Source of the DNA: a virus
Taxonomy: Duplodnaviria > Caudoviricetes
Virus record (IMG/VR): IMGVR_UViG_3300037067_004891
Coordinates: 224,001-288,000 of that record
Strand: one strand, 5' to 3'
Length of the DNA stretch: 64,000 nucleotides
Shown here: positions 4,471-53,384 of the stretch, one piece after another
Numbering within the stretch: position 1 is the stretch's first letter
Layout of the letters: each line of letters starts with the position of its first letter
Position numbers and translations under genes: made by a program
Notes under the pieces: model-generated
The model's database searches: none
Seen by the model: the letters and a program-made list of their open reading frames with translations, nothing else
What the model was told of the DNA's origin: nothing

Positions 4471-4727
4471 GTTTTATATGAAAAGGGTCTCATCTTATAT
4501 TTATTTGATAATGCGCCACCATCTAATTCTAATTTAAAAACAGAAGTAGAAGAATCACCCAAGTATTCACCCATCATTTTGTCTCTGGTTGTTGATATAT
4601 TTGAAAAATATTTAGATGAAATTTTATTATGCTTTAAAATATAAAATATTTTTTCAATATCAATTATATGATAAAGACTACCAATATTTTTATACTCATT
4701 TAAGAATGAATAAAAATTTCTAAGCAT
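4471..4727 (-). pseudogene. CTS-tagged ART-like gene truncated by the tnpB element; paralog of 21173..21757
   Basis: MLRNFYSFLNEY...LYH...ISTTRD...LSNKYKMRPF parallels YHYTS...VSFSRN...LKNNYKIKPF. The last 21 aa of the track ORF come from the IS end. Confidence 0.7.
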
Positions 4728-5211
4728 TGCAATAACGTTTTATTTTATTCAAATCGTGTTTTAACAATTCTACCAATCCAAAATGTTTAGGTTTTATTTT
4801 AATTAGCTCGTCAAACGTTATCCATTTATAACTTTCAGTCTCCCAGTTTAATTCGGGTTCGAATTCTTCATCTATTAAACCTATAAAATTGAAATATTTA
4901 AAAGTCTTTGTGGGTGTTTCAAATATATATGCAGGTATTAGTTTGATATCACCACTGTATCCAGCTTCTTCTGTAAATTCTCTTTTAACAACATCCATAA
5001 TATCATCTTCAGTTTGACCGTATTCTTCATCTATCTTACCACCCCAAACTCCAAAACATTGAGACTCTAAGACATAAGCTGACCTAAAGGGAAGTAATAT
5101 TCTATTTGTTGAGGTACATATCGGTAACACTCCACCACCTACATTTCCCCAAAAATTATCACCAGCGTCATTATAACCATATTCTTCAAGAAATTTTTTA
5201 TAACTTTTCAT
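4720..5211 (-). CDS. Nudix hydrolase with CTS-like leader
   Basis: Nudix box GGKIDE...VKREFTEEAG (with an insertion); leader MKSYKKFLEE. Confidence 0.85.
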   Translation of the reverse strand: MKSYKKFLEEYGYNDAGDNFWGNVGGGVLPICTSTNRILLPFRSAYVLESQCFGVWGGKIDEEYGQTEDDIMDVVKREFTEEAGYSGDIKLIPAYIFETPTKTFKYFNFIGLIDEEFEPELNWETESYKWITFDELIKIKPKHFGLVELLKHDLNKIKRYCNA

Positions 5212-5213
5212 AT

Positions 5214-5720
5214 TTAATTCAATAAATTTTTATTGATATTTTCATCATAAAACACTTCTTCTATTAAGCCATCAAATTCATAATGTAAATCATACTCAAC
5301 TGGGTCAAATTCTTCACCATCATCAGTTATAAATTTATAGTCGGATTGCTCTGTTTCTTTATCTCTAACTATATATCCTTTGTATATTTTATATCTAAAA
5401 TGTATTTCACCAACATAAGCTACTGAATCATCTTCATCAGACATATTCTTCAACAAGAAACATATTTCTTTTGTTGAATCATAATATTTTTTGTTAATTA
5501 TATTTTCACCATTAAAAATGGAATTTTCAGAAGGTTCTTCCTCATCATTTTTTAAAATTTTCTGAACTTCGGGAGATTTAACATCTTCTATGTTTTTTAA
5601 TTGATTTTTTTCCTCTGGGGATAACGAGTTCATACCACTTTTAGAAATTTTATCTAATAAATTATCAAGTACTTTTGTTTGATAACTTGAATATTCTTCA
5701 AATAATAATAAAAATTTCAT
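5214..5720 (-). CDS. CTS-tagged hypothetical protein
   Basis: Likely start MKFLLLFEEY at 5720; contains LDNLLDKISKSGMNSLSPEEK (DUF6576-like helix). Confidence 0.65.
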   Translation of the reverse strand: MKFLLLFEEYSSYQTKVLDNLLDKISKSGMNSLSPEEKNQLKNIEDVKSPEVQKILKNDEEEPSENSIFNGENIINKKYYDSTKEICFLLKNMSDEDDSVAYVGEIHFRYKIYKGYIVRDKETEQSDYKFITDDGEEFDPVEYDLHYEFDGLIEEVFYDENINKNLLN

Positions 5721-5814
5721 TTTATATGTTTTATTTTTCATTATATATTAAATTATATTTTTCTAATAATGAACATTCAAATTTAAATATATAGATAAAA
5801 ATAGATAAACAACT

Positions 5815-6441
5815 ATGAATGATAGTGATTCAATAAACCAAGAAAAAAATAGAATCAGAGATAGTATAGAGATATTAGAACAGGAAATAACTGAAATAAA
5901 CATCGATCCAGATAATTTCTTTCCTGATGAAGTTCCAGGGCTTAATCTGAACATCACCCAATTTGATTATAAAGGTGAAATAGATAAAATACGAGAGGAA
6001 TGTCAAGAAACACTAAATTGTTTATCGAGCCTCTATCTCACCGATGAAATAGTAAGTAGGAAAAATGTCAACAATATAATTCAAAACGATGCACTGTCAT
6101 TGTGTGATTTAAAATTTTCAATGGCGATGTCCAAAAGAGCTTTAATTAATTTAATGGAACAAATTGATAGTGGTGTTAACCATCCTGAAATGTATGAAGC
6201 AGTTGGAACTTTTCAAAAAGAAATCCGTGATAGTATTAAAATGTTATATGATATACAAAAACGAATGAAAGAATTCTACAAAGAATTAAAAGATGAATTA
6301 TTAAATATCAATACTGGTGAAGAAACAGCTCCTGATATAGAACAACATGATAAAGTGAAAATCTTTGACCTTAGACTTATAAATAAAGAACTTGATGATT
6401 ATAAAGACTCGGCAAATGATAAGAAAAGAAAAAATAGTTAA
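5815..6441 (+). CDS. Putative terminase small subunit (T4 gp16-like)
   Basis: HPEMYEAVGTFQKEIRDSIKMLYDIQKRMKE resembles the gp16 PRAYEV...L.DLQKKMK helix. Confidence 0.5.
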   Translation: MNDSDSINQEKNRIRDSIEILEQEITEINIDPDNFFPDEVPGLNLNITQFDYKGEIDKIREECQETLNCLSSLYLTDEIVSRKNVNNIIQNDALSLCDLKFSMAMSKRALINLMEQIDSGVNHPEMYEAVGTFQKEIRDSIKMLYDIQKRMKEFYKELKDELLNINTGEETAPDIEQHDKVKIFDLRLINKELDDYKDSANDKKRKNS

Positions 6442-6618
6442 GTTTTTGTAAGAAAATATTTATTTTCAGAAAAAGACATTTTCCAATTAGATGGTAATAA
6501 CGTTTGTAAAGTTTTAATCTTTGTATATTTTTTTCTTTATCTCCAGTGAAACTAAATACAAATACTTTAAAAATATCATCAATTGTAATATTGACTTTCG
6601 AAAGTCAATATTTTCATG

Positions 6619-7227
6619 TTATTTAGATAATAATTTTATTAAATCATTTTTAATAATAGCTTTCAAAATAGGTGTTAAATTGGACACCACGACATATTCA
6701 TTAGTACCATCAACTGATAAATCTTCATTTAAATGCTTTTTAATAGAATCTAATGATTTATAATGTGTGATAACACCTTCTACTAATTCTTTTAAATTGA
6801 ATCCTTCTTTTGGATTATATTTAACAACTTGTAGTGTACTTTCGTTTCTATCCATTAAGAAATACCACAACTTCTTATTATCAATTTTAGCAGTTTCTAA
6901 AAAAAGAAAGGCATCTTGGGCTTTTATAACCTTTTCGAAAACAGCTATTTTATTTACGAATTTAATATTATTGAATAAATTTTCCAAATTGATGTTTGTA
7001 TTTTCTTTTTTTAAAGTCGGTTTAACTATTGTTGGTTTTTTTATTTCTGGTTTATCAATAGTAGCCCTATTAATACCAAAAGCATCATTTCTTTTTACCC
7101 TTGGTTCACTTACCTTTTTAACTTCTGCTTTAGGTTCACTAACTTTAGGTTCTTTTACAACAGGTTCTTTTAAAGAATGACTTTCTGTTGTCTTTTTAAA
7201 ATCGTTGAAACTTTTAATTATAGCCAA
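6619..7227 (-). CDS. Hypothetical protein, paralog of 55340..55717, with CTS-like leader
   Basis: Shared WY...KYN.KEGF.L...DLIKLL core; leader MAIIKSFNDF; KEP-rich linker. Confidence 0.7.
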   Translation of the reverse strand: MAIIKSFNDFKKTTESHSLKEPVVKEPKVSEPKAEVKKVSEPRVKRNDAFGINRATIDKPEIKKPTIVKPTLKKENTNINLENLFNNIKFVNKIAVFEKVIKAQDAFLFLETAKIDNKKLWYFLMDRNESTLQVVKYNPKEGFNLKELVEGVITHYKSLDSIKKHLNEDLSVDGTNEYVVVSNLTPILKAIIKNDLIKLLSK

Positions 7228-7281
7228 AATATCAATTTTATTTTTTAGTATATATTTATATTTAAAAGTCGTTTTTAATAC

Positions 7282-7318
7282 AAAAAATCAACGAAACGTT
7301 CAATTTCGTTGATTTTTT
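7282..7318. terminator. Intrinsic terminator hairpin
   Basis: aaaaaatcaacgaaa-cgttcaa-tttcgttgatttttt. Confidence 0.7.
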
Positions 7319-7399
7319 GTATTTTTAATGGTTTTTTATTAAAATCTACTAATAAAATACCGCTAAACTAAATATTTAGCTGTTTTCTTGTAAGTTTTC

Positions 7400-7882
7400 T
7401 TAAATTTCTTGCGTACCTGTTTCTTGTGCTGGTATTTCTTGAACAGTTTGTTGTGTTTGCGATGTTGGTTGCGATGTTGGTTGCGATGTTGGTTGCGATG
7501 GTGTTTGGGTCTGAGCTTGTGGCTGTGTTTGAGGCTGTGACTGTGTTTGAGTTGGCTGTGTTTGACTACCTTGTATATCATCAGTAACTTCAACATTGCC
7601 AGATTCATCACCAAGAACTATACTACTTGGAAGATTATCTATAATCATATTATTTTCAACGCAATATTTTAATATTCTGTATGCAACATCAGAATCGCTC
7701 ATCATTTCACGAAGATTTCTTTGAGTTTCATCTTTTACTTTTTTGATATAAGCATTTACTAATGATACAGGAATTTCAATATCACTAAGTACATAAGCAT
7801 TACCAATTTTTATAACACCTTCGTTCAATTTTGAACCGTGTTTCTTATCTTTAAAGTCATTAAATCCTGTTAAGTTTTCCAT
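7400..7882 (-). CDS. Hypothetical (possible head/core) protein with a Q/P/T-rich tail
   Basis: Leader MENLTGFNDF...LNE; low-complexity SQPT repeats. Confidence 0.65.
   Translation of the reverse strand: MENLTGFNDFKDKKHGSKLNEGVIKIGNAYVLSDIEIPVSLVNAYIKKVKDETQRNLREMMSDSDVAYRILKYCVENNMIIDNLPSSIVLGDESGNVEVTDDIQGSQTQPTQTQSQPQTQPQAQTQTPSQPTSQPTSQPTSQTQQTVQEIPAQETGTQEI
7459..7500. repeat. 12-bp coding tandem repeat (gcgatgttggtt)x3.5
   Basis: Visible directly; encodes the PTSQ repeats of 7400..7882. Confidence 0.85.
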
Positions 7883-7917
7883 AATTTGTTTTTATATTTT
7901 TTATTTATATATTAATT

Positions 7918-8739
7918 TTAAATAATCATTTTTTTAAACATTTTTATATTATAAGTATTATTTACATCATATTCACACTTTGAAATTCTAAACCATGTGA
8001 AGTTTTTATATTTTTCGATTTTGCCTCTTGCACATAATTTAATATTACTAATACTAAATCCATCTTTCGTAGCATCATTTATAGACGTATATATTTTTTG
8101 TAAATTTTCATCTTTAAACATAAAATAGACAAATAATCTATTACTTTTATATTCTTTCGTAATATAATCATAGCTCCCGTTTCTCATAGATGCCATTACT
8201 ACATTTGGATATTTTTTTCTAAAGTCCATTTTATCTTTACATTTCAAAGCATATTTTTCACATTCATCAGATGTCCATTTAATTTTATTTCCACCTAATC
8301 CACCCGTTTTCGCTTTATTCAACACAACAAAAAATTTGGATAAAAAATTCACATATTCAAATTCTTCAATTGTAGCATCATCAACTGGTATATAATCAGT
8401 TAATTTTAAAAATTTTGGTATTAAACTTGTTTCTATCATATGAGTTTTAACCGCAGAATATTTTATATTATTTAGATGGTCATTAATTCTTTTTTCATAA
8501 TTATATGTCAAACCAACATAAACATGATTATCTGGAAATATTGCACAATATATCATTCTCTTTTTTAAATTTCCAACAGGTTTCATATGAGAACATATTT
8601 CATCTATCCATTCATTAGAACGAGATTTATTATATGCACCACTAAATCTGTTACTAAATTCTAATCTACTATTACATTTTAATGCAGCTTCTCGGCAATT
8701 TCCCTTATTATTCCAATAACCATATGGAAAATATCTCAT
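7918..8739 (-). CDS. GIY-YIG homing endonuclease with helical repeats and a NUMOD1-like tail
   Basis: MIYCAIFPDNHVYVGLT...R...H...E...LN; C-terminal YTSINDATKDG...SNIKLCARG. Confidence 0.8.
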   Translation of the reverse strand: MRYFPYGYWNNKGNCREAALKCNSRLEFSNRFSGAYNKSRSNEWIDEICSHMKPVGNLKKRMIYCAIFPDNHVYVGLTYNYEKRINDHLNNIKYSAVKTHMIETSLIPKFLKLTDYIPVDDATIEEFEYVNFLSKFFVVLNKAKTGGLGGNKIKWTSDECEKYALKCKDKMDFRKKYPNVVMASMRNGSYDYITKEYKSNRLFVYFMFKDENLQKIYTSINDATKDGFSISNIKLCARGKIEKYKNFTWFRISKCEYDVNNTYNIKMFKKMII

Positions 8740-8798
8740 AATTATTTACAATTTAATTTTAGATTATATATTAATTATTGAGTGTTTTCTATTTAAAA

Positions 8799-9434: not shown

Positions 9435-9472
9435 GCTTTATTTTTAAGCATATATATTAAGTGGAATTTTTT

Positions 9473-11023: not shown

Positions 11024-11038
11024 TTCATATTTTATTTT

Positions 11039-15973: not shown

Positions 15974-16900
15974 ATGTTGTCAACATATAAACAATTTACA
16001 ATTAAATTATTAGAAAAAAGTTCACTAACAGCACTTGGTGTACCAAAGGAAGTGATGCAGAATATACAAAAAGATTATGCATTACGACCAGATGCTGATT
16101 GGGTAGAATACACATTAAAAAAGAATATTAAAGATGAATTAATCAAAAATAAAAATGTTTTATTTGTTCAAATTGGTGATGATTCAATAAAAATATATTG
16201 TTCTGTGTATGAAAATAAAAGAAAATTTTATTTAATAGATAGATATATAAAATATATAGGTGAATGGGGTGAACACTGGGAAAAAAATAATAGAGAAGGT
16301 ATAACATTAACTCAATTATTAATTGAAATAAATAGTGAACCAAAATATAAAAAATATAAATTAAAAGATGATATTTTTTCTGTTGTAAAAAGTGATATAA
16401 GAAATATCGAAAAATCTGAAAAAGAATTCGAAAATTTTAACATACAATTTAAAAAATATTTGATAAATTATTTTACAAAAGTTCTTAAAAATTCTCACTC
16501 TAAAGCTTCTAAGCGAATAGAAAAGACAATAATTAATAATTTAGCTAAAGTTAAAATTGATTTAACACCAGAAGATATAAAACAGGTGTTGTATCAAAAT
16601 GTCGATCTGGCAACAAAAACAAAAAAACATCAACAAAAAGCGGAAGATATACCCAAATATAAATTGGATAATGAAGAAGTTCAGTTTAATTCTCTAACAA
16701 TTTTCAATGAGTTTTTACTTCAGTTTGAAGAAGAATATTCAGAAAAGTATAATGAATATTATACTGTGAAAAATTTGGTTGAAAAATACTCCAAAGATAA
16801 AATAATATCAGCCTTCATTTATTACCTTTACACTGGTTCATTAATGGATTTGAATAGTTACAAACCAATTGGTGAATTAGATGATTTGTTTAATTTTTAA
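15974..16900 (+). CDS. CTS-tagged hypothetical protein
   Basis: Leader MLSTYKQF..KLLEK; 308 aa. Confidence 0.65.
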   Translation: MLSTYKQFTIKLLEKSSLTALGVPKEVMQNIQKDYALRPDADWVEYTLKKNIKDELIKNKNVLFVQIGDDSIKIYCSVYENKRKFYLIDRYIKYIGEWGEHWEKNNREGITLTQLLIEINSEPKYKKYKLKDDIFSVVKSDIRNIEKSEKEFENFNIQFKKYLINYFTKVLKNSHSKASKRIEKTIINNLAKVKIDLTPEDIKQVLYQNVDLATKTKKHQQKAEDIPKYKLDNEEVQFNSLTIFNEFLLQFEEEYSEKYNEYYTVKNLVEKYSKDKIISAFIYYLYTGSLMDLNSYKPIGELDDLFNF

Positions 16901-20429: not shown

Positions 20430-21176
20430 TTACTTAAAATATTTATTTGTATTAACAAATTTAAAAATAGTACCAGACTTCTCAACATCATTTTTAATCT
20501 GGATATTATCATCATAATGTTGTAGTGCTTTTATGTTTCTTAGAATATATGATTTTTTAACTCTATCACCATCTGTTGTGAATACCTCATAAATATTAAT
20601 ATTATTATTTCGTATAAATTTCCAAATATTGACCGTATCATAATTCTGCCTCGATGTTACAACAACAATGGTATGTGTTTTTGACAATTCATTTATTTTA
20701 TCAATAATTTCTAAATTCGGTTCAAAATTATCATAATCGTCATAAATTTTAGGACGAATAGTACCTCTTATAATAGATTTATGCAACACGCCATCAAAAT
20801 CAAAACTTATAGTTTTTTTAAATACGGGTTCATATAAATTTGGTAATTTATTATTAATTGTTTTATTTGCTTGTGAATATGAAATAGTTGATGTATTCAT
20901 ATCAAAATCAATATTGAATGCATTTCCTATACGAATCAATTTATCAACTAATTCCTTTTCATTATCTTCGTCCTGTATTATTACATTCAACTTTATAATT
21001 TCTTGAAAATTATCCAAATCTTTTAACATATATGGATGCAACCCTTCTATTTCTTTTATTTTATTATATGCCTGATAATAATAAATTTTATTAGTCGGGT
21101 TTTCTATCTCATATGAATCATATGGTTTGAATGTGAATATTTTATAAGTGGTGTTAAATTCTTCAAATGTTTTCAT
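20430..21176 (-). CDS. CTS-tagged HAD-family phosphatase
   Basis: Leader MKTFEEF; DFDGVL, VVTSR, K, HYDD motifs. Confidence 0.8.
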   Translation of the reverse strand: MKTFEEFNTTYKIFTFKPYDSYEIENPTNKIYYYQAYNKIKEIEGLHPYMLKDLDNFQEIIKLNVIIQDEDNEKELVDKLIRIGNAFNIDFDMNTSTISYSQANKTINNKLPNLYEPVFKKTISFDFDGVLHKSIIRGTIRPKIYDDYDNFEPNLEIIDKINELSKTHTIVVVTSRQNYDTVNIWKFIRNNNINIYEVFTTDGDRVKKSYILRNIKALQHYDDNIQIKNDVEKSGTIFKFVNTNKYFK

Positions 21177-21757
21177 AATACTGGTTTGTATTTATCTACG
21201 AATCGAATCGGTAATTTTAATTTTAAATTATAAATTTTATTTTTATATTCATTATATATTTTATCTATGGTAATTTTATCATTCAAATAAGTGTTTTCAT
21301 CTGGGTGATGTGAATTTAAAACACCCTGTTTTTTACTATCAAGTTCTTCTTCATATGGGGCAAGGTTTAATATTTCAATATCTATTAATGATGGTTTAAT
21401 ATCAATACCAGTTTTTATATTATATTTTGTAGCATATACTCTTTCTTCTCTTTCAGATTTATCAGGATAGTTTGTATCGAAAAATGGTTTGATTTTATAA
21501 TTATTTTTTAGCTTGTTATAATCAACACAAATTCGACAACTTCTTTTATCTACTCTTAATTCTGTTGATCTCATATCAAAATTACGACTAAAAGATACAT
21601 AATTAGAATATGAGTTGTGAAGAAATAAACCGCAATCTGGTTTATATTGTTTGAGTATTTTATATAAAATATAAATACTGGTATAATGATATATTGGTGT
21701 TATAATTAAATTATCATTGAGTTTTTCATTTAGAAAATCAGAATATATCTTAATCAT
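21173..21757 (-). CDS. CTS-tagged ADP-ribosyltransferase-like protein
   Basis: Leader MIKIYSDFLNE; YHYTS / VSFSRN / EREERV motif order. Confidence 0.6.
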   Translation of the reverse strand: MIKIYSDFLNEKLNDNLIITPIYHYTSIYILYKILKQYKPDCGLFLHNSYSNYVSFSRNFDMRSTELRVDKRSCRICVDYNKLKNNYKIKPFFDTNYPDKSEREERVYATKYNIKTGIDIKPSLIDIEILNLAPYEEELDSKKQGVLNSHHPDENTYLNDKITIDKIYNEYKNKIYNLKLKLPIRFVDKYKPVL

Positions 21758-26907: not shown

Positions 26908-26929
26908 ATTAAATTAATTAAATTTTTAA

Positions 26930-30698: not shown

Positions 30699-30965
30699 AT
30701 GAAATATTTAAAAACTTTTGAATATCTTATGAATGATAAATTATATAAAATCGAAGTTTTCGATAAATCAAATCCTGATAAAAGTACACCAATAGCACAA
30801 AGCACTGTGACTGGTAGAGAAAATGACACAACAATAGAATCTGATTTCGAAAAATCAGAAGAATTTTCTAATATTAAAAAGAAAAATCCAAACGCTGATT
30901 TAATAATTAAAGTTTCGAGAGTTCATGATTCGATTACAAATTTTTTAGACAAAAAAAAATATTAA
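30699..30965 (+). CDS. CTS-tagged small protein
   Basis: Leader MKYLKTFE. Confidence 0.65.
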   Translation: MKYLKTFEYLMNDKLYKIEVFDKSNPDKSTPIAQSTVTGRENDTTIESDFEKSEEFSNIKKKNPNADLIIKVSRVHDSITNFLDKKKY

Positions 30966-35112: not shown

Positions 35113-35946
35113 TTAATTTTTAAAATATTTAAAACGTTTTATATATTTTAAATTTTCTGTTATCACATTAGCGATATGATTTATTTTCAAATCATCTTTT
35201 AACATATATAAAACATTCTGCAATTCTTTAAAATTTTCATCTGTATACCCCCATGTACCTATAAAATCTTTAAAAGTATTTATTTTATCCATATCATTTT
35301 CATCTATCATATCTGGGTCTGGGTCATCCAAAAAATCTTTATAATCATAACTTATATCATAAAAATAGTTTAAGTCACTACAAATAGCAGTAATAACACC
35401 ATATAAAGCAATTTTCTTATTGAAAAGATAATGTCTGACTGTTTGTAGTAACCACTCAGCAAAATTATCCGTTATTGTAATATTTAAATCATCATCAATG
35501 GTTTTTTGAATATCTTCTATTGTTTTTAGTTCTGGGTTCTTTGAAATTTCTTTTATATTTTTATTCAAATATTCTTTAGTTTTCCAAACTTCATCCGTAT
35601 CCAAATATAGGTCACCATCTGACTCTGTTTCACCAGCACCATTAATTAATAAACATCTTGGGTCAACGACCATCGTTAAAACTTCACCATTCCCCTTTTC
35701 ATCTCTTTGTCCAGCTCTTATAGCTGCATAATTCCAAACATTATCAAATTTACTATTAAAATCACCTTCATCAGTATGGAAAAAGAATCCATCCTTAAAG
35801 TGTTTAGTTGATTCTATTTGTTTAGCAGCAAACTTACTCGTACCATGATACACAATAATATTATTCTTACTATCCTTTTGAAATGTAAAACCATGACCTC
35901 TTGCTCTATCCGTTAAACTTTCTAATCCTTCTTGTTTCGATATCAT
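35113..35946 (-). CDS. ART-like domain protein with a CTS-like motif at the C-terminus
   Basis: IIVYHGTS...GFFF...YA; ends ENLKYIKRFKYFKN. Confidence 0.55.
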   Translation of the reverse strand: MISKQEGLESLTDRARGHGFTFQKDSKNNIIVYHGTSKFAAKQIESTKHFKDGFFFHTDEGDFNSKFDNVWNYAAIRAGQRDEKGNGEVLTMVVDPRCLLINGAGETESDGDLYLDTDEVWKTKEYLNKNIKEISKNPELKTIEDIQKTIDDDLNITITDNFAEWLLQTVRHYLFNKKIALYGVITAICSDLNYFYDISYDYKDFLDDPDPDMIDENDMDKINTFKDFIGTWGYTDENFKELQNVLYMLKDDLKINHIANVITENLKYIKRFKYFKN

Positions 35947-37019
35947 TTTTTTCTTGGATATTTTTCATAAACACTAATCATATAAGGTGGGATATCACCT
36001 TTAACTCTGAAACCGTGTCCATATAATGCACTTTCAGCTAAGGAATCCCCAACACTTATACCAGCATGTAATATTTTATTATATAATTGGTCTTTATCAG
36101 CTTGTAATAAATAAACTGGAATTACGACTTCATAAACAACGATATCATCATAAGGATAAGCTATATCCCCAAAAGTTTTAGCCATATCAGGAAAAATAGA
36201 TAAATAAACATATCCTGTCTGAGATTGAAAAGATTTTTTAGTTTTATTTTTAGTTGTTAATAGTCCATCTTTCAATATATTTATATTAGCAGATGTTCCG
36301 TGATACAATTTCACTGGTTTACTATTTGGTTGATATTGATTTTTATGTGGACTTATTATTTTATTAAATTCTTTCAACATTTCGGGTGTTGGGTCTGAAT
36401 AAAATAAATCAGGATATTCCTTTAATAAATCGATAGGATTACTCATATCCACATTATAATTAGAATGAACATAGGCTTCGAATTTTTTAAAAGTGCCTCT
36501 TTTCATATTTATTACCATCCAATCATTAATCTTAGAATAATCATACACATCATTCTCATTGAACCTTTTATCGTTAAATGTTAAAGCTATAATAACAAAT
36601 GATTGAGGGTGTTCCCATAAATATACCGTGTGTTTAATTACATACTCTACGAATTCATCTGGGATAATTGGAATACCATCTTTAGATAAAATATCTTTAT
36701 ACTTTTCTAATATTTCAGATAACATTTTTTCATTATACATCCATATAGAACCTGACGAAACATTAGATTCTGATTCAGATTTAATTTTGAATATAATATC
36801 ATTTTCTTTAGAATATTTCACTAAATTATCTATAACCTCATCTGGGTTGCCATATCTATTATTTATATAATTAATAGGTAAATATCCCAGAGCCTTTGTT
36901 TTACCAACATTCAGTAAATCACCAAGGACGATAAAATCTTCTGGTTTAAAATTATAATCGGTTGTTATTTTTTTCGAAGTTGGATTCTTAAAATCCTCGA
37001 ATAAAATTAAATATTTCAT
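35943..37019 (-). CDS. CTS-tagged two-domain protein with a C-terminal ART-like domain
   Basis: Leader MKYLILFEDF; internal TFKKFEAY; KLYHGTS...GL...YVYLS....A..FG...VYEV...GDIPP. Confidence 0.7.
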   Translation of the reverse strand: MKYLILFEDFKNPTSKKITTDYNFKPEDFIVLGDLLNVGKTKALGYLPINYINNRYGNPDEVIDNLVKYSKENDIIFKIKSESESNVSSGSIWMYNEKMLSEILEKYKDILSKDGIPIIPDEFVEYVIKHTVYLWEHPQSFVIIALTFNDKRFNENDVYDYSKINDWMVINMKRGTFKKFEAYVHSNYNVDMSNPIDLLKEYPDLFYSDPTPEMLKEFNKIISPHKNQYQPNSKPVKLYHGTSANINILKDGLLTTKNKTKKSFQSQTGYVYLSIFPDMAKTFGDIAYPYDDIVVYEVVIPVYLLQADKDQLYNKILHAGISVGDSLAESALYGHGFRVKGDIPPYMISVYEKYPRKK

Positions 37020-37339
37020 CCTGTACTTTCTATAAATTTTATATCCTTTTCAGGTATTTCTTCTGGTGAAGCATAACGTTTACTTGTTGAACGATGTGTA
37101 TAAACAAAAAAACCATCATCGTCCGCACCCAACCCAACACCGTCCATTCTCGAAACTAAACCCTGTGGTTTTTTAAGACCCCTAACTATTCCATTTTTCA
37201 CTTTAGAACCAGTATTCATTAGAGGTTCTATTAATTCTTTCATTTTATCAGATATTTTTCTACTCAGGTGTAATGAATTTTTATTTTCTTGATATCTATT
37301 TCGTTTTTCTAATAAATTAAAAGCTTCAAACGAATACAT
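37016..37339 (-). CDS. CTS-tagged small protein
   Basis: MYSFEAFNLLEK. Confidence 0.65.
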   Translation of the reverse strand: MYSFEAFNLLEKRNRYQENKNSLHLSRKISDKMKELIEPLMNTGSKVKNGIVRGLKKPQGLVSRMDGVGLGADDDGFFVYTHRSTSKRYASPEEIPEKDIKFIESTG

Positions 37340-37348: not shown

Positions 37349-37639
37349 TTATTTTTTATTTATAATATAATGATAAATATATTCAGCACAAAATTCAACT
37401 CTCTTATTTTCAGATTCAAACTCACCAATAATTTCTTTAGCTTCATCATTTGTTGTTAACAACGTTTTAACATTTTTCATAATGACATCAACTCTGGTAA
37501 AATCTTTCTCAGATACACCATTTTCTCTCATTATTATATCAATCAATGAACTACTAACAGCATCAATATAAGTCCATGTACGATTAAAAATAGATGCCAA
37601 ATTTTCATTTATAAATATTTCAAATTTCTTTACTATCAT
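37349..37639 (-). CDS. CTS-tagged small protein
   Basis: MIVKKFEIFINEN. Confidence 0.65.
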   Translation of the reverse strand: MIVKKFEIFINENLASIFNRTWTYIDAVSSSLIDIIMRENGVSEKDFTRVDVIMKNVKTLLTTNDEAKEIIGEFESENKRVEFCAEYIYHYIINKK

Positions 37640-37982: not shown

Positions 37983-38093
37983 ATTTTTATTTTTATTTTT
38001 AATTATATATTAAATTAAAATGAATTGTTTTATTTTTTAATATATAAGGTAAATGTTTCTATTTTAATATATATTAAAAACTAAAATATAATA

Positions 38094-45967: not shown

Positions 45968-47338
45968 ATGAAACACATTTCAAATTTTAATAATTTTCAC
46001 ATAATAAATGAATCTATGTTTGGAAAATTTAATGGTAATATTCAATATACCGATTGGTCGGATTTCAAAGAGAAATTGAAACACACAATCACAACAGATT
46101 TTAATTCAATTGAAGAAATGATTTCTTTAATGGGTATGAATATTGACCGCTATAACAAAATAAAAGAAAATATGATATGGAATTGGAAAGATTCTGTATC
46201 AAAAAGTTTGTTACACTCAGTCGCTGAACTAAATTATAAAATACCAAAAAAAGGAACAAATATATTTCCTGATTTATTAACACAAACAAGATTTTTAATT
46301 CTATCCGCAAATGGATTTCAATCCAGAAACGTATTTGGAGATTATAATTCCACAAGTGGTCTTGGAATATTAAGTAGTATGAGAGATTTGGAAAAAATAA
46401 AAAACACTGACCCAAAACAAACCGAGCGAGATAGATTTTCAAATAAAGAAATAATGAAACGATATGTATCAATAGGTGGGACAGACGCTTTTACTGTTAG
46501 GTCAGAAGAAGCAATTAAAAAGGTTAATAATATACTTCAATATATTTGGTTATATGTTTTTTACAATCACTATGTCTTGAAAAAAGGTTTAAAAGAAAAA
46601 ACTCATAAATTACCAAAATATCTTTATAGGGGAATCCGAGGAACTATGTGGCAAAAAGCTGAAAAGGTTATCGGTAAGGAATGGTCAGAATTATCTAAAA
46701 CACATTCAGATTTAAAAGTGAAACATAATAAAGCCATGCAAGAAAAATATGATTTACTTTTTGATTATATACTTAAAAATAGTATACATAAATTGACTGA
46801 TGGTAAATATCTTTCTTTCACTGCCAGTATGCCTATCGCAAAATATTTTTCAAATAAAGACGGATTTGTTCTTCGAGTTGACACTTCAAAAGTAAATATA
46901 ATAACATCGGAACTGACCGATGAATTATTCGACCAAGAAGATTATGTAAGTGGTAGAAAAGAAAGAGAGTATATTGTTGTAATACCTGAGAATTATAAAT
47001 TTCAAAAAGATGATATCATAGTAACTGATGAAGATTATCTCATAGCTACTAACAACCCATTAAGTGTTGGTGCATTTACACACGACACTAAAGAAGCTTT
47101 TTATGATATGTTAGATGATAAAGGAGTTAAATGGAATGTTCACGCATATTATGTTTGGTCATCAAATGATAAGGGTGGGGTGATATATGGTGTAAAAAAA
47201 GATGGTGAGGAAGATTATAACTGGGCAGATGGTAGAAACAATATTAAGAAAAAATACAATTTTGACCCATTACCAACAGAAAACAATTTAGATAAAATAA
47301 CAAATTTTAAGGTAAATGATGAGAAAAAAAGATGGTAA
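45968..47338 (+). CDS. CTS-tagged R-S-E ADP-ribosyltransferase (Alt/Mod-type fold)
   Basis: Leader MKHISNFNNFHIINES; LYRGI / YLSFT / EREYIV. Confidence 0.75.
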   Translation: MKHISNFNNFHIINESMFGKFNGNIQYTDWSDFKEKLKHTITTDFNSIEEMISLMGMNIDRYNKIKENMIWNWKDSVSKSLLHSVAELNYKIPKKGTNIFPDLLTQTRFLILSANGFQSRNVFGDYNSTSGLGILSSMRDLEKIKNTDPKQTERDRFSNKEIMKRYVSIGGTDAFTVRSEEAIKKVNNILQYIWLYVFYNHYVLKKGLKEKTHKLPKYLYRGIRGTMWQKAEKVIGKEWSELSKTHSDLKVKHNKAMQEKYDLLFDYILKNSIHKLTDGKYLSFTASMPIAKYFSNKDGFVLRVDTSKVNIITSELTDELFDQEDYVSGRKEREYIVVIPENYKFQKDDIIVTDEDYLIATNNPLSVGAFTHDTKEAFYDMLDDKGVKWNVHAYYVWSSNDKGGVIYGVKKDGEEDYNWADGRNNIKKKYNFDPLPTENNLDKITNFKVNDEKKRW

Positions 47339-47343
47339 TATAA

Positions 47344-49896
47344 ATGATAAGAACCGAAGTATTAAATAAAGAAAAACTATCTAATATCATATATAGTTAT
47401 GGTGAACCGTATGACTTTGATAAGAAAATAAAATATTTTCATTATTTTGATATTCGGTCATCACATTTGGACTATGATCCCAATGAAAAATATAAAGCCA
47501 GAACATATTTTGTCACCTTATTTGATGATGATGATATCATCGGATTAGCTAAATTACAAGAAAATCCATATAATCAACAAGGTTTATTTTGGATACAGTA
47601 CATTTCCATCGATGATAAACACCAAGGAATGAGATATTCAAAATATATTATTGATAGAATGATAAAATTTTGCAAAGAAAATAAATTTAAATTGAAAACA
47701 TCTGGTTATTCAACAAAAGGGTGGGAACGTCTAAGGGAATATCTTCATTTATCTGCGGGTGCAAATGATGTGGAATTAATTGATACCAAAGAAAAACCAG
47801 AATACGAAAACCACACTTCAATAGACACATTAGTTAATACAAAAGTCATAGATTTTAATAAAAAACCGTTGATTGTATATCATGGAACAAATAATAAATT
47901 CGATATTTTCGATATAAATATGATAAACACAAATGAGAAGAGTGGTGATTATATTGGTTCGGGAATATATTTCACACGTTATAAAGACACTGCATTAAAA
48001 TACGCAAAACAGGCGGTGAAAAAAGGTGGGGGTTTAGTAAATATTATATCGGCATATTTAAATATCGAACATCCATTAATTATAAATAACACATCAGATG
48101 CTCAAAAATTGAGAGATTTATTTGGCGGGGAATTTAATTATTTTTCTATTTTGGATGACAATCCAAATCTTATTAAAGATGAATTAATAAAATTGGGTTA
48201 CGATGGTTTAATAGACAATATGTATAATCAATATGCAGTATTTGAACCAAGTCAAATTAAAATAATTGATAATTCTGTATCATTACAAAATGAAAATATT
48301 GTTAGTTTTTCAAATTTCATTGTAAATGAAGAACATGACTACACCAAAGAATCCATTTTAAAATTTATAAAAGATAGAAATCTTTATTTAATGGATGGAA
48401 AATATTTGGAATTATATCATGGAACAGACCCAGCATCATATAGAAAAATAGAAAAATCTGGTAAATTAAAATCTGGTACATGGTTCGGGATAGATTATGA
48501 AACATCAAGAAGATATGGTTTAATGAGATTACACAGAGGTGAACCAGTGGTAATGAAGATTTATGTTGATATTGATTCCTTATATATATCAAGTGAATAT
48601 TTTATTGCTAAACACGATTTAAAGATGAACTTGATGTATGGTTCTGGTTCTAATGTTTATGAAAATAAAAATCCAAATATAAAATGCTATATTTGCGAGA
48701 ATAATAATACAAAAGAAGAAATGTTCATACCTGAAGATATATTAGAGTTTCACGATTTATTTACTCAGGCTGGTAAAAAACTTTTTTTAGTTGGGGGTTG
48801 TATCCGTGATTATATAATGGGTAAAACACCACATGATTATGATTTAGTAACTGATGCATCACCAGATGAGACTAAACAAATTTTAAAAAATTACAGAACA
48901 AATTTACAGGGCGCACATTTTGGTGTAATAAGAGTGTATACCGAAGATGAACCAAAGGGATATGAAGTAGCTTCTTACAGGCGTGATATCTCAAAAGGAC
49001 GCTCAAATAAAGGCGATGATCAAAAAGTTGAAATCGGTTCTCATATCACTATTAAAGATGATGTTTTAAGAAGGGACATAACTCAGAATGCGTTATTTTA
49101 TGATATTGGTAAAAAAGAAATAATAGATTTAGTTGGTGGTATAGAAGATATTAAAAATGGTATTATACGAGCTGTCGGTAATCCAATGGAACGATTCAAT
49201 GAAGACCGTCTTAGAATTTTGAGAGTTTTTCGTTTTTCAGCCCGTTCACGTTTTAAAATTGATGATGAAACAGCGAATGCTATAAAAAAGGACAACCGTC
49301 TGAACGGTTTATCACCTGAAGAAGATGTTTCCCAAGAAAGAATACTGGAAGAAATTTTTAAAATATGGGAATATGCATCCGAAAAAAATGATTTACCTGC
49401 TTGGAAACTATATCTCAAATATCTGACTGAGTTTAAAATGTGGAATCAGATGTTTAAAAACATGCTTATTAATGAGGATGTGATTAACATTGATAGTTTA
49501 GATTTAATTCAGATGTATACATATTTATTTCTGGATAATACTCCAGATACTGAATTTAATAAACGTTTGATTAGAACATTTAAATTTTCATCGGATAATG
49601 CTAATATAATTTGTTTTCTATTAACATTTTATAATAATATCAATGATGTCGATAAGGTGTTTGATATGAAAAAGAAACAAAACCAATTTGATATTGACCC
49701 GAATATTATAAAAGAATTTTCTGATATACATAAACTGGATAAAAAATTTACTGATAAATTCATTGAATATGATTTAACAGTATCAGGACAAGAATTAATG
49801 GATTCTGGACTAAAAGGAAATGAAATTGGTATAGAACAAAGGAAGCAAGAAAAAGAAATTTTTCAAAATATGATTAACGAATCTTTTGATTTTTGA
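47344..49896 (+). CDS. Polyvalent protein: GNAT + two ART-like domains + CCA-adding enzyme/poly(A) polymerase
   Basis: ISIDDKHQGMRYS (GNAT); VYHGT...GSGIYFT...GYDG...FEPSQIK; LYHGT...GTWF; LVGGCIRD...DYDLVT...RRDITQNAL...EDRLRILR. Confidence 0.85.
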   Translation: MIRTEVLNKEKLSNIIYSYGEPYDFDKKIKYFHYFDIRSSHLDYDPNEKYKARTYFVTLFDDDDIIGLAKLQENPYNQQGLFWIQYISIDDKHQGMRYSKYIIDRMIKFCKENKFKLKTSGYSTKGWERLREYLHLSAGANDVELIDTKEKPEYENHTSIDTLVNTKVIDFNKKPLIVYHGTNNKFDIFDINMINTNEKSGDYIGSGIYFTRYKDTALKYAKQAVKKGGGLVNIISAYLNIEHPLIINNTSDAQKLRDLFGGEFNYFSILDDNPNLIKDELIKLGYDGLIDNMYNQYAVFEPSQIKIIDNSVSLQNENIVSFSNFIVNEEHDYTKESILKFIKDRNLYLMDGKYLELYHGTDPASYRKIEKSGKLKSGTWFGIDYETSRRYGLMRLHRGEPVVMKIYVDIDSLYISSEYFIAKHDLKMNLMYGSGSNVYENKNPNIKCYICENNNTKEEMFIPEDILEFHDLFTQAGKKLFLVGGCIRDYIMGKTPHDYDLVTDASPDETKQILKNYRTNLQGAHFGVIRVYTEDEPKGYEVASYRRDISKGRSNKGDDQKVEIGSHITIKDDVLRRDITQNALFYDIGKKEIIDLVGGIEDIKNGIIRAVGNPMERFNEDRLRILRVFRFSARSRFKIDDETANAIKKDNRLNGLSPEEDVSQERILEEIFKIWEYASEKNDLPAWKLYLKYLTEFKMWNQMFKNMLINEDVINIDSLDLIQMYTYLFLDNTPDTEFNKRLIRTFKFSSDNANIICFLLTFYNNINDVDKVFDMKKKQNQFDIDPNIIKEFSDIHKLDKKFTDKFIEYDLTVSGQELMDSGLKGNEIGIEQRKQEKEIFQNMINESFDF

Positions 49897-51270: not shown

Positions 51271-51282
51271 TTTTTGAAAATT

Positions 51283-51828
51283 TTATATATTATCAATTAT
51301 AAAATCTAAATTATTGTCAACACCTTTCAAATCTTTCCATAGATTAGAATTAATATATTCATCATAAAAAATATTCATATTAGAATAAGCTTCAGATTCC
51401 CAAGGTAAATTTTTATATTTTTCGATATCTTTACCTAATTTATAATATTCTTTAACATTCATTGTAAAATTATCTTTCCATATTATAAATTTATAATCAC
51501 CAGATGGTTTTAACTCACCTTTTGATACCTGTTTAATATGTGTTAATTCATGTATAAGGGATTTAATTATTTGAATATAACTTTGATTTGAGTTAAAAAA
51601 TAGTGTAAACTTATTGTTATTTACTGAATTATCATTTATTTGTATGTCACCAAGAAGATTTGTTGATTGTTTCTTTTTAACAATTATCTTAGCATCAAAA
51701 TTCAATTTTATTTTCATAAAAGATATCACAGAATTTATGAGTAATTTTTCATAAGTTTTAATTTTATTATCTTTAACAAGAATATTTTCGTTTATTCTAA
51801 ATTGATGGAAATTATTAATATGTTTCAT
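51283..51828 (-). CDS. CTS-tagged zinc metallopeptidase-like protein
   Basis: LIHELTHIKQ...PWESEA; leader MKHINNFHQFRINE. Confidence 0.75.
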   Translation of the reverse strand: MKHINNFHQFRINENILVKDNKIKTYEKLLINSVISFMKIKLNFDAKIIVKKKQSTNLLGDIQINDNSVNNNKFTLFFNSNQSYIQIIKSLIHELTHIKQVSKGELKPSGDYKFIIWKDNFTMNVKEYYKLGKDIEKYKNLPWESEAYSNMNIFYDEYINSNLWKDLKGVDNNLDFIIDNI

Positions 51829-51837
51829 TAATATATT

Positions 51838-52380
51838 TTACGTTTTACAAAATTCTTTTATCTTATCGATAACATAATCATCGATTGGTAAATTATCTAT
51901 ATTATAATATCTGGTTTCTGATATTGGAATATTATTGGCACTCCATATCACAAAGTCACCAGTTCTTTTATTATATTCAATTGCAATTTTAGAAAAGTCT
52001 AATGATTCTTCATCATCGTGTAAATCAGCCCATTTTTCTTGGGTTATTTCTTCATCTTCTTCATCATCAAAATCTTGATTTTCTATTTTTCTATTTAAAT
52101 AATAGTATTCCTCAGATTTTTCTTTATTCTCTGGAGACATATTATAATTTCGCTGTATGATATAAATTAACTTGTTTTGATTTTCTCCGTTCACATAATT
52201 ATCTGACCACGCACCTGAATGTGGTGCAGATGTACACCAATTCGTATATGCACCATATTTACAACTGGCTTCTTCAGATAGTGGAGCAACAACTATATAT
52301 TTATCATTTCTTAAAATTTCAATTCTTTCTTCACGAACAACTCTTTTTTCAAATAAAAAATCTTTGAATTTAGTTTTCAT
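51838..52380 (-). CDS. CTS-tagged protein with SC.YG...WCT domain (PcfJ-like)
   Basis: PLSEEASCKYGAYTNWCTSA; leader MKTKFKDFLFE. Confidence 0.65.
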   Translation of the reverse strand: MKTKFKDFLFEKRVVREERIEILRNDKYIVVAPLSEEASCKYGAYTNWCTSAPHSGAWSDNYVNGENQNKLIYIIQRNYNMSPENKEKSEEYYYLNRKIENQDFDDEEDEEITQEKWADLHDDEESLDFSKIAIEYNKRTGDFVIWSANNIPISETRYYNIDNLPIDDYVIDKIKEFCKT

Positions 52381-52900
52381 ATAAATTAATAGTTTTTAAT
52401 ATTCGCAATTTGTTAGGGTCAAAAATAAATAAGTTATCCACACCCGTTTCCCTTACATATGCACCATCATAATCATTTTTCTTCAACCATTCATAAAACC
52501 AAACTTGTTCCAGTTCACTATAATCACCCGAACAAATTCCACCATAATACCTATCTACATCTTCAAATTTTTTCTCAATATCAAAATATAATTTTTCACC
52601 AAGTATATAATCTTTATTATCTTCTTTTTTAATACCTTTTTCTAAAAATCTAAATAAATCATAACCATTCGGTAATATTTTATAATCAAATATTTTATTT
52701 GTCAACACTTCTATTTCATATATATGTGGTGTTTTAAATCCAGCGTGTGTCTCTGCAAAATCTTTATCAGATGTTAAAAACACAGGAGCGATATAATTAT
52801 AATCTAAAAGAGTTCCTTTTTTTAATTTAAAATCGGAAAAAGATTCTTTAGACCCATGATACCACTTCTTATTAAACTGTTCAAATAATTTAAGACGCAT
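52370..52900 (-). CDS. CTS-tagged ART-PolyVal-like protein
   Basis: Start MRLKLFEQF at 52900; WYHGS...F...VFLT....A...YDG...FDP. Confidence 0.7.
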   Translation of the reverse strand: MRLKLFEQFNKKWYHGSKESFSDFKLKKGTLLDYNYIAPVFLTSDKDFAETHAGFKTPHIYEIEVLTNKIFDYKILPNGYDLFRFLEKGIKKEDNKDYILGEKLYFDIEKKFEDVDRYYGGICSGDYSELEQVWFYEWLKKNDYDGAYVRETGVDNLFIFDPNKLRILKTINLYEN

Positions 52901-53384
52901 TTTGATTATTTTTGAATTTATCAACAAAAAATCTTCTTCTTAATATTGAAGCTTTATTTGGGTTTGTTTTATAAAAGTCTTTAGCTTCTATTTCTAAATT
53001 TTTAATTTCTTCTTCACCCATATTAGCTGTCCATTGTTTAAATTCTGGAGAGTGTGTCACAGTTTCAATTTCTTCGATTTCTTTCAAATATCTATCGATA
53101 CCGATGTTATCTAATGATATTATATAGTTTATACCATCTATCGCTTTTGCACCCCATATATTATTTGCTAAATAAAGGCTAACATCTTCCAAACTATTTC
53201 TTGAAGCCATACCTCTTGTACTACCATTTGTTGTATCTTTTATATCAAAATATTCACCATGCATATTTTTCTTTTTATACACTTCAATAGCATATTTTCC
53301 ACCCTTGGTAGCAGCACGGAACATCAATTCACCATTTTCAGATTCATTATTATTTTCATTTATAAATTGAGAGAATGTTTTCAT
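52890..53384 (-). CDS. CTS-tagged hypothetical protein
   Basis: Start MKTFSQFINE at 53384. Confidence 0.7.
   Translation of the reverse strand: MKTFSQFINENNNESENGELMFRAATKGGKYAIEVYKKKNMHGEYFDIKDTTNGSTRGMASRNSLEDVSLYLANNIWGAKAIDGINYIISLDNIGIDRYLKEIEEIETVTHSPEFKQWTANMGEEEIKNLEIEAKDFYKTNPNKASILRRRFFVDKFKNNQNAS

Follow-up and report, generated by a model that had tools for sequence, protein, structure and literature searches.

No megaphage of 0.5-0.7 Mb is in culture, and functions are known for only a minority of megaphage genes. The window analyzed here, a stretch of 64,000 nucleotides corresponding to bases 224001-288000 of a 421,673-bp IMG/VR viral contig (G000, 25.7% GC), raises the question of why 17 genes scattered along it open with a similar short leader, and whether this leader does for their products what the capsid targeting sequence (CTS) does for the internal proteins (IPs) of phage T4. 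The initial annotation took the leader for a CTS-like tag that loads a large set of cargo proteins into the phage head for injection with the DNA. By analogy with T4, we consider it likely that the shared N-terminus, whose full form is K-x-[FY]-x-x-[FY]-[LI]-x-E, is an expanded capsid-targeting and propeptide signal. That most of the tagged proteins would be injected effectors is a separate proposal, which we put at slightly below an even chance. On the same analogy, the phage probably carries about 10 times more kinds of pre-made cargo protein than T4.

All 17 N-termini named in the initial annotation are present and open reading frames (ORFs) of 88-456 aa. That they share one leader holds in part: 11 carry the full motif, five have only the aromatic pair, and the remaining gene (start at 7227) is doubtful. 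The pattern [FYL]xx[FY]x(0-4)[LI]xE is found within 22 residues in the genes starting at 4727, 5211, 15974, 21757, 37339, 37639, 45968, 51828, 52380, and 53384, with a loose eleventh match, which has a longer spacer, at 7882. The genes starting at 5720, 21176, 30699, 37019, and 52900 show only K-x-[FYL]-x-x-F-E. Over the whole contig, for which a simple greedy caller yields 538 ORFs, the motif stands at the N-terminus of 50 (9.3%), while 1.7% of internal windows match its loose form. The strict regular expression [FY]xx[FY][LIF]xE occurs in the first 20 residues of 28/538 ORFs versus 16/5084 internal windows (odds ratio 17, p = 1e-18), and expressions of the kind used in the initial annotation are 4- to 20-fold enriched in the first 20 residues relative to internal 20-residue windows. 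The annotation had proposed a motif search with shuffled and internal controls. De novo expectation maximization on the first 29 residues (zero or one occurrence per sequence) recovers K-x-[FYL]-x-x-[FYL]-[IL]-x-E-N with a log likelihood of 369, as against 204 for internal and 224 for shuffled sequences. A position weight matrix (PWM) trained only outside the window reaches at least 9 bits in six of 81 window N-termini and in none of 449 internal windows. Shuffling the N-terminal 22-mers (300 shuffles) gives a mean of 9.4 matches and a maximum of 20, compared with the 50 observed; for the strict form the mean is 1.3 and the maximum 6, compared with 27. ATG-started ORFs in the wrong frame or strand of the same DNA match at 1.55% (strict, 0.14%) versus 9.3% (5.0%) for genes. 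The predicted enrichment over AT bias is therefore borne out by shuffles, internal windows, and wrong-frame ORFs alike. We note that a first fixed-width PWM, trained on the same N-termini, overestimates the number of members (86 at 9 bits or more); the member counts given below rest on a cross-validated PWM and on an untrained regular expression with background subtraction.

Apart from the leader, the proteins are indeed unrelated, as had been claimed. After removal of the first 25 residues, 95 loosely tagged proteins fall into 88 BLASTP families, and a MAFFT alignment of the 42 strict members shows the consensus IKxFxxFINE and nothing beyond it, with the Glu conserved in at least 90%. The median leader measures 13 residues from Met to Glu (interquartile range 11-14). 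Synonymous codons at the motif positions track genome-wide usage in 9 of 10 tests, and both the distance from the Met to the motif and the spacing before [LI]xE are variable; the constraint therefore bears on the encoded peptide and not on an element in the DNA or RNA. A codon bias of another kind is seen in LR756501, where the Ile at P3 of the leaders avoids ATT (4/36 versus 43% genome-wide, p = 8e-5); it is absent in the contig under study.

Judged by its sequence, the contig, which CheckV rates as 59% complete, is a fragment of a Mahaphage/Lak-type megaphage of Bacteroidota, the group described by Al-Shayeb et al. 2020 (PMC7162821) and Devoto et al. The placement follows from the gp6-like baseplate wedge gene of the window (21760-23622; phrog_219, E = 2e-13). 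By tblastn, its product is closest to LR756501 (735 kb, 45% identity), then to the huge phage genomes LR756500, LR756502, LR756504, and LR745206 (460-640 kb, 33-39%), and then to Lak phages of Prevotella (27-28%), with more distant matches in Flavobacterium phage MaF61, Sphingomonas phage PAU, and Tenacibaculum phage PTm1. LR756501 is matched by 143 of the 538 contig proteins, and by conserved structural proteins the closest relatives are Lak/LR7565xx genomes of 540-735 kb. Iyer et al. place Lak and PTm1 within a T4-related jumbo group (PMC7824862). A giant eukaryotic virus, considered for the AT-richness and size, is ruled out by the T4-like baseplate, UvsX, DnaB, and the megaphage relatives. 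The genomes compared were the contig itself, a second IMG/VR genome (G001), LR756501 (W01), LR756504, Lak-B5, PTm1, and T4. G001, which was found by pattern search, is complete (639,979 bp with terminal repeats, 25.7% GC), covers 45% of the contig at 80.5% nucleotide identity, and contains the leaders MKTKFKDFLFE and MKTFSQFINE in forms identical to those of the window.

The enrichment recurs in these relatives, with 67/943 N-termini in G001 (versus 2.0% of internal windows) and 70/997 in LR756501 (versus 1.56% of internal windows), the latter at 32% GC. After background subtraction, about 41 leaders are left in the contig, 48 in LR756501, and 54 in G001, compared with about 2-5 in T4 and about 1 in PTm1. 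Beyond these genomes, the exact leader MKxFxxFINE is present in at least 120 IMG/VR contigs. Among the matches examined, 75/84 open ORFs of at least 50 aa, the loci range from 22 to 48% GC, and INE is most often followed by Ala or Ser. Two large contigs from this set were tested, and both have clear gp21 protease genes (37 and 119 bits).

Conservation is concentrated on the motif. In 37 orthologous tagged pairs from the contig and G001 the motif is retained in 30 (for example, MRNYKSFIAE versus MKSYKAFINE), and the motif positions are 84% identical (95% in the same class) versus 63% for other leader positions (p = 2e-6). Whole-leader identity between the two genomes does not exceed that of the protein bodies (71% versus 74-77%); the motif positions alone stand out, and they are under purifying selection.

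The CTS that T4's internal proteins carry was reportedly the subject of work by Mullaney and Black in 1996. It is found on IPII and IPIII (MKTYQEFIAE), IPI, and Alt and is removed by the prohead protease gp21 (reviewed in PMC9026906 and PMC3012670). The IP propeptides have 10-19 residues, of which the first 10 of IPIII are enough for packaging; residues 4 and 7 chiefly govern targeting and residues 8 and 10 processing, gp21 cutting after L/I-X-E, and the loading of varied proteins by a CTS in T4-like phages is an established idea (PMC9026906). The key residues of MKTYQEFIAE (Y4, F7, I8, and E10) correspond to K2, [FY]4, [FY]7, [IL]8, and E10 of the de novo PWM, which was derived without reference to T4, and one protein of the contig begins MRNYKSFIAE. 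T4 itself served as the positive control: searched for at the DNA level, M-K-x-[FY]-x-x-F-I-x-E matches only ipII, ipIII, and gp61.1, and the reversed control gives 0. The gp23 propeptide comprises 65 residues (PMC5694885), and the gp23 maturation site, FGSFLTE65, has the same aromatic-x-x-aromatic-L-x-E form. Because this site shares the full form, the sequences suggest that a gp21-type head system recognizes the whole motif and not L/I-x-E alone. Within T4, we also observe that gp61.1 (NC_000866, 18966-19130), a 54-aa "hypothetical protein" that begins MKTFKEFIKE followed by D, is the top N-terminus of all T4 ORFs by the megaphage PWM; from its sequence, it may be an unrecognized CTS-bearing T4 head protein.

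Machinery that could read such a signal is present in the relatives. The Gp23 capsid family (PF07068) is above cut-off in five of the five relatives searched, and a match to Peptidase_S77 (PF03420) lies beside the capsid gene each time, with 56 bits in Lak-B5, 46 in PTm1, 24-25 in LR756501 and LR756504, and 14 in G001. The head module of G001 runs in the order portal, 804-aa protease ORF (S77 over the same profile span), and capsid protein. The megaphage proteases share with T4 gp21 the blocks NRNxRxYP, GE[LFM]xHP, and [VI]SSR[GA]xG, which hold the equivalents of His85, Ser140, and Asp168 (T4 numbering), aligned in all relatives; H85A/S140A is catalytic-dead gp21 (PMC12991175). When the T4 proteome is searched with a hidden Markov model (HMM) built solely from three megaphage protease domains, gp21 is the one protein recovered (E = 4.5e-5, with 0.2 for the runner-up). 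By these criteria the relatives encode a predicted gp21-type protease, and the head of the Mahaphage/Lak group appears to be built by T4-like machinery consisting of a gp20-like portal, a gp21-type protease-scaffold, and a gp23-type capsid protein. Candidate processing sites can be aligned as well. The protease N-terminus has [LIV]NE before [SAQ] just ahead of the catalytic domain, like T4 LIE-9, and in the capsid alignment megaphage QMNE, followed by NVGY, stands opposite T4 FLTE65, followed by AEIGG. Separately, a 181-aa ORF of LR756501 at 11386-11787 on the minus strand, far from the head module, shows another, weak similarity to Peptidase_S77 (23.6 bits) and may encode a protease paralog like SPN3US gp117.

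The protease ORFs of LR756501 (73913-76336) and G001 (624524-626938) are 804-807 aa long and contain the protease first and then an array of scaffold-like repeats. Each has 13 copies of [FY]xx[FY][LIV][AGT]E, of which 12 recur every 14 residues exactly, as in ...NLDKSIDYSQYIAE↓NLEKNIAYAEYIAE↓... (arrows mark predicted cuts after Glu, here and below). An acidic, Gln-rich stretch and a C-terminal domain follow the array. The same array is found in the LR756504 protease ORF, PTm1 has a related [FY]TKELSE↓G repeat, and a 253-kb T4-like IMG/VR contig has YxxY[LI]AE repeats ahead of its protease domain. The 804-807-aa ORFs hold 28-30 [LI]xE sites, or 3.5-3.7 per 100 residues, where the proteome averages 1.28; the 269 residues of T4 gp22 contain 16 such sites. 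A PWM trained on the N-termini of the contig gives four internal matches in only one protein of LR756501, and that protein is the protease ORF. We therefore read these ORFs as a predicted gp21-type protease joined in one polypeptide to a gp22-like scaffold in which each repeat unit contains the leader motif, and the median leader of 13 residues is about as long as one 14-residue unit. No description of a gp21-gp22 fusion with a phased repeat array was found in the literature. A complex prediction for the G001 scaffold (aa 290-475) and a leader-bearing N-terminus (aa 1-40) returned a score of 0.00, but it was run without controls and counts neither way.

Set against T4 as a whole, the megaphage leaders, known here from sequence alone, fall in the same length class of 10-19 residues, occupy the same N-terminal position in the same key-residue register, and likewise sit on otherwise unrelated proteins, including an ADP-ribosyltransferase (ART). 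The clade also has a homologous protease with the His, Ser, and Asp kept, a homologous gp23-type capsid protein, and the gene order portal, protease, scaffold, capsid. The differences are of scale and detail. Megaphages have about 40-55 leaders per genome above background (5-9% of ORFs) where T4 has 3-4; their P2 residue is mostly Asn and P1' is Asn, Lys, or Ser, whereas T4 has Ala at both; protease and scaffold form one protein of 804-807 aa; and gp22 has many L/I-x-E sites without an aromatic-pair repeat, while the megaphage scaffold has 12 phased 14-residue repeats.

The upstream regions of the tagged genes are consistent with expression alongside head genes. A T-rich tract with a T[AT]ATATATA box lies 15-35 nt upstream of the LR756501 portal and protease genes, with a close variant at the capsid gene, and also precedes the baseplate and fiber operons of the contig. 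Because it associates with structural genes, this box is probably the late/structural promoter of the clade; the T4 late promoter, TATAAATA, is the point of comparison. In the contig and in LR756501 the box precedes 40% of tagged versus 16-17% of untagged genes (p = 2e-4 and 2e-5). It is found before about 17% of all ORFs genome-wide, with examples in the window at 53410-53440, 38040-38090, and 26910-26960.

The leader behaves as a module. Across the contig, G001, and LR756501 the same domains occur with a leader, without one, with the leader elsewhere, or behind a different leader, and the architecture, as judged from homologs and an AlphaFold2 model of the 52890-53384 product, is leader, disordered linker, and then domain. 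The recognizable cargo is enzymatic and comprises Nudix, ART-PolyVal-like, SprT-like, DUF3990, HAD-like, and HExxH proteins. Phage proteins for which packaging and injection are known or predicted include ones with domains of the ART-PolyVal, SprT-like, Nudix, and HAD-like types, and T4 Alt, the prototype of a packaged ART, belongs to a family whose genes typically lie near baseplate genes (PMC5512222). Two tagged genes of the window (20430-21757) adjoin the baseplate gene, as Alt-family genes do.

From these observations we infer a pathway of packaging, cleavage, and injection that parallels that of T4. Synthesis of the tagged proteins would be late and would accompany that of the structural proteins. 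As in T4, the leader of 10-15 residues, with its aromatics three apart, would bind the scaffold core, which is formed of 14-residue repeats with [FY]xx[FY][LIV]AE and one unit of which the leader resembles. The capsid shell would then close round core and cargo. Motif identity and the catalytic residues suggest that the protease would cut after the Glu of [LI]-x-E, and the same cutting would dice the scaffold and release the cargo from its leaders. As with the T4 IPs and Alt, the mature proteins would remain in the head and enter the host with the DNA. A more specific version, in which the leader is a free-standing scaffold repeat, so that cargo co-assembles with the array and is freed by the scaffold-dicing cuts, is offered tentatively; we regard it as possible but rather doubtful.

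Several findings weigh against the CTS-type reading. Between 40 and 90 cargo species would be far above anything shown for a T4-type head. The claim of a T4-CTS-like tag is supported by the residue register, the protease and capsid protein of relatives, the scaffold repeats, selection, the promoter, and some of the cargo families. In the contig itself, a Pfam search finds no gp21 (PF03420), gp23 (PF07068), or T4 portal (PF07230). The same search finds no HK97 protease or capsid (PF04586, PF05065), terminase (PF03237), or nucleocytoplasmic large DNA virus capsid (PF04451), and PHROGs on the 196-226-kb cluster of the contig identify replication and baseplate-hub genes and no head genes. Because none of the G001 head proteins has a tblastn or HMM match in the contig, its head module is predicted to lie in the missing ~40% of the genome, and the link to the protease therefore rests on relatives. 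In the three closest of these, the S77 Pfam scores (14-25 bits) are under the cut-off of 27, and PTm1 has the protease but no leader expansion. Six of the 17 window leaders have no canonical [LI]xE after the second aromatic, and that element alone is common by chance (29% of N-termini and 21% of internal windows). The tagged proteins have a median pI of about 6, unlike the basic IPs of T4, and their genes are evenly spread, at 3-7 per 50 kb, not grouped in a few islands; clustering is modest, being significant in G001 and LR756501 and not in the contig. Finally, since about 36 of the 42 strict members have no recognizable domain, the term "effector arsenal" is for most cargo a guess.

Could the leader instead be a protease-removable propeptide, a safety catch with no sorting role that would hold enzymes inactive until the prohead protease works, on proteins that act late in the producing cell and are not injected? 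The cleavage-type element [LI]-x-E is the best-conserved part of the motif, the AlphaFold2 model puts the cut site in the disordered linker that precedes the folded domain, some of the cargo enzymes (ARTs, peptidases, Nudix) could be toxic, and gp21-type proteases can act on non-virion substrates (PMC12991175). However, the two aromatics, which are the targeting residues in T4 (PMC9026906), are as conserved as [LI]-x-E. T4 gp21 is assembled in the prohead core and restrained by autoproteolysis, so efficient cutting would need the substrate in the core, and the resemblance of the leader to the scaffold repeat in motif and length points to co-assembly. We regard a pure safety catch as improbable. 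Much the same lack of recognizable enzyme domains that makes effectors a guess would suit proteins that are mostly structural or assembly parts of a complex head (inner-body, core, decoration, or size-determining proteins), processed as in phiKZ and SPN3US and not delivered as effectors. The head of SPN3US contains about 50 kinds of protein, of which many undergo processing (PMC7411985, PMC10052503); several tagged genes lie inside the head modules of LR756501 and G001, and a very large capsid may need many internal proteins. Such parts would hardly be expected to be scattered genome-wide or to turn over so fast (75 of 96 tagged proteins have no LR756501 homolog, although untagged proteins are nearly as variable, at 72%), and the cargo with a recognizable domain is enzymatic and of the injected polyvalent type. 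A structural role may hold for some members, but it fits poorly overall, and as a general explanation we find it quite improbable.

Very improbable, in our judgment, is that the leader has no link to the head and reflects AT-rich composition, a constraint on mRNA starts, mis-called starts, the tag of another enzyme, or a signal for secretion or degradation. At 25.7% GC such explanations have some appeal, as F, Y, I, L, N, K, and E have AT-rich codons, Lys at position 2 is a general N-terminal preference, and a radical-SAM gene lies 3 kb from one tagged cluster. Against them, matches are 5- to 35-fold scarcer among shuffled N-termini, among internal windows, and among wrong-frame ORFs; the enrichment is equal in the 32% GC relative and the IMG/VR loci span 22-48% GC; synonymous codons follow genome usage; Met distance and internal spacing vary; and the leader, whose last residue is acidic, lacks the hydrophobic core that Sec and lipoprotein signals have. 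These controls have already largely refuted the idea. A radical-SAM-linked tag was rejected as well, as the contig has only two radical-SAM genes versus about 50 dispersed tagged genes and the radical-SAM protein encoded in the window has no SPASM domain.

With the capsid-targeting signal as the preferred reading, the individual genes of the window can be considered in turn; bit scores are those of the out-of-window PWM. At the left end, four minus-strand genes illustrate the range of leader quality. The 107-aa product of 4404..4727 has the full motif (MLRNFYSFLNE↓Y, 12.0 bits) and no Pfam or PHROG match; in G001 its leader heads a 446-aa protein in which the domain of the window protein lies 150 residues further in. 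The next gene (4720..5211) encodes a tagged Nudix hydrolase of 163 aa (PF00293, E = 2.6e-7) with the full motif MKSYKKFLEE↓Y (11.9 bits), and its G001 ortholog begins MKNYKQFLEN. A partial leader, MKFLLLFEEY, with L-F-E and a negative PWM score, opens the 168-aa DUF6576 protein of 5214..5720 (PF20216, E = 1.9e-8), whose N-terminus is conserved in G001. The gene at 6619..7227, read as (M)AIIKSFNDF, is doubtful because it has a TTG start and its G001 ortholog, which aligns only from residue 44, does not have that N-terminus. On the same strand, the 160-aa protein of 7400..7882 is a loose member (MENLTGFNDFKDKKHGSKLNE↓G) with the aromatic pair and L-N-E at residues 19-21; it has no family match in Pfam or PHROG, and its entire N-terminus is kept in G001.

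Further along, the 308-aa product of 15974..16900 (plus strand) has a full but spaced motif, MLSTYKQFTIKLLE↓K, found as a regular-expression match; compared with it, MISSYKYFITKILE↓K of the G001 ortholog differs at the x positions but has Y, F, and [LI]-L-E unaltered. Two minus-strand genes lie downstream of the baseplate wedge gene. The one directly downstream (21173..21757, 194 aa) carries the full motif MIKIYSDFLNE↓K (13.7 bits) and has the G001 ortholog MVKLYYEFLYE↓K, and the other (20430..21176) encodes a HAD-type phosphatase-like protein of 248 aa (phrog_1238 and phrog_415, E = 1e-6 to 3e-4) with the partial leader MKTFEEF (6.3 bits). Partial leaders are also found on the 88-aa protein of 30699..30965 (plus strand; MKYLKTFEYL, 4.7 bits; G001 homolog MKYIKLFENY) and on the 358-aa protein of 35943..37019 (minus strand; MKYLILFEDF, 6.9 bits). 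The C-terminal half of the latter is a separate 188-aa protein in G001 with its own leader-like start, KFIKTFEAY. The sub-class formed by MKYLKTFE.., MKYLILFEDF, and MKFLLLFEEY, which have no downstream [LI]xE, may work differently. Two full-motif genes follow on the minus strand. In the 107-aa protein of 37016..37339 (MYSFEAFNLLE↓K, regular-expression match), the G001 ortholog MLGYNNFLLE↓K shows an F-to-Y change and an indel but retains L-L-E, and the 96-aa protein of 37349..37639 (MIVKKFEIFINE↓N, 19.4 bits) has the ortholog MKVKTFEIFINE↓N.

The plus-strand gene at 45968..47338, preceded by a TAATATATA-type box, encodes a 456-aa protein with the full motif MKHISNFNNFHIINE↓S (regular-expression match; G001 ortholog MKRIHSFNDFNSINE↓S). 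It lies just upstream of the gene for an 850-aa polyvalent protein (47344-49896, plus strand) composed of GNAT, ART-PolyVal (aa 174-311), and a PolyA_pol head of the CCA-adding type (aa 480-609). This polyvalent protein has no N-terminal leader, but a near-motif, SFSNFIVNE, at aa 320-329 just past the ART domain, may be an internal processing site.

The last four tagged genes are all on the minus strand. The 181-aa protein of 51283..51828 has the full motif (MKHINNFHQFRINE↓N, regular-expression match), an HExxH sequence (HELTH) at residue 93, and a weak PF00062 match below cut-off. That of 51838..52380 (180 aa) has the full motif MKTKFKDFLFE↓K (17.8 bits), a leader identical in G001. The 176-aa product of 52370..52900, with the partial leader MRLKLFEQF (8.5 bits), is ART-PolyVal-like (PF18760, E = 2.3e-5), although its score of 25.6 bits is under the 31.2-bit cut-off. 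The window's best match is the 164-aa protein of 52890..53384 (MKTFSQFINE↓N, 21.8 bits), which has a TAATATATA box upstream. Its domain is clade-restricted: only eight homologs are found among 5.8 billion proteins, every one of them leader-bearing; down to 58% identity they keep M1, K2, F4, Q6, F7, N9, and E10 invariant and have a variable Asn/Ser/Glu linker with an indel after the leader. The AlphaFold2 model (predicted local distance difference test score, pLDDT, 83.7) shows a low-confidence helix at residues 4-10, disorder at 8-15, which spans the predicted E10-N11 cut, and a confident domain from about residue 18. A fold search of the PDB returns only weak leads to nucleic-acid-binding repeats of the PUR-alpha/PC4 type (about 68 residues matched at E about 0.03), which were not used to assign function.

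Other features of the region are recorded here in their own right. The window contains an SSB gene, and UvsX, a split DnaB, and a gp5-like hub are encoded directly upstream of it. The DnaB-like helicase (contig positions 202051-205724) occupies two ORFs of 247 and 361 aa, the larger of which has an unknown 253-aa ORF and a 303-aa HNH homing-endonuclease gene as downstream neighbors; the gene looks split by a mobile insertion. Within 7918-11023 of the window, a 516-aa protein matches PF01541 (GIY-YIG-type, homing-endonuclease-like). N-termini like KPNGYWTFERCKEEALKY mark many paralogous GIY-YIG-type genes in the window and at 606-632 kb of G001, where they are interspersed among the head genes and the portal region looks interrupted by them. 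A minus-strand operon at 56301-57810, unrelated to the leaders, encodes a 261-aa radical-SAM protein with no SPASM domain and a GT25-family glycosyltransferase.

Two other known systems invite comparison. Like the proposed system here, phiKZ, 201phi2-1, and SPN3US have a giant myovirus head with tens of internal proteins, a diverged gp21 homolog (gp175/gp245, MEROPS S80) that cuts after Glu, and propeptides thought to direct cargo into the prohead (PMC5694885, PMC7411985, PMC10052503). However, their propeptides mostly exceed 100 residues and have no short motif in common, cleavage follows S/A/G-x-E where the megaphages have [LI]-x-E, no scaffold counterpart has been identified, and the phages belong to another lineage (Chimalliviridae and relatives) with a virion RNA polymerase. 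The polyvalent proteins of Iyer et al. 2017 (PMC5512222) overlap with the tagged proteins in repertoire (ART-PolyVal, SprT-like/MPTase, GNAT, and Nudix) and are predicted to be delivered with the DNA in the earliest phase of infection; the window contains one true member, the 850-aa GNAT-ART-CCA protein. They differ in combining many domains in one polypeptide with no shared short leader, whereas here most domains sit on separate small proteins that each bear a tag. We found no published description of CTS-type leaders in megaphages, and the comparative paper on jumbo phages (PMC7824862) mentions neither a CTS nor a prohead protease. New here are the enrichment controls, the tie to a gp21-type protease, the protease-scaffold repeat fusion, the selection test on orthologs, and the promoter association.

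If the leader works as in T4, it would provide a sequence-only rule for recognizing megaphage proteins that travel in the particle and reach the host before phage expression begins, and such proteins would be candidates for takeover and counter-defense functions. It would also mean that the T4 head-loading system scales to about 10 times more cargo species than T4 has. The fusion of the protease to a scaffold in which the motif recurs in phase points to a loading mechanism that is concrete and can be tested. Because the tag differs little from the T4 CTS, a sequence already employed for packaging foreign proteins, the test can be made in T4 itself with no megaphage culture. Should the leader prove to mimic a scaffold repeat, any protein would become cargo by gaining about 13 codons, megaphages would pre-load 50-90 proteins (5-15% of their genes), and a considerable share of megaphage "dark matter" would represent an injected proteome readable from sequence.

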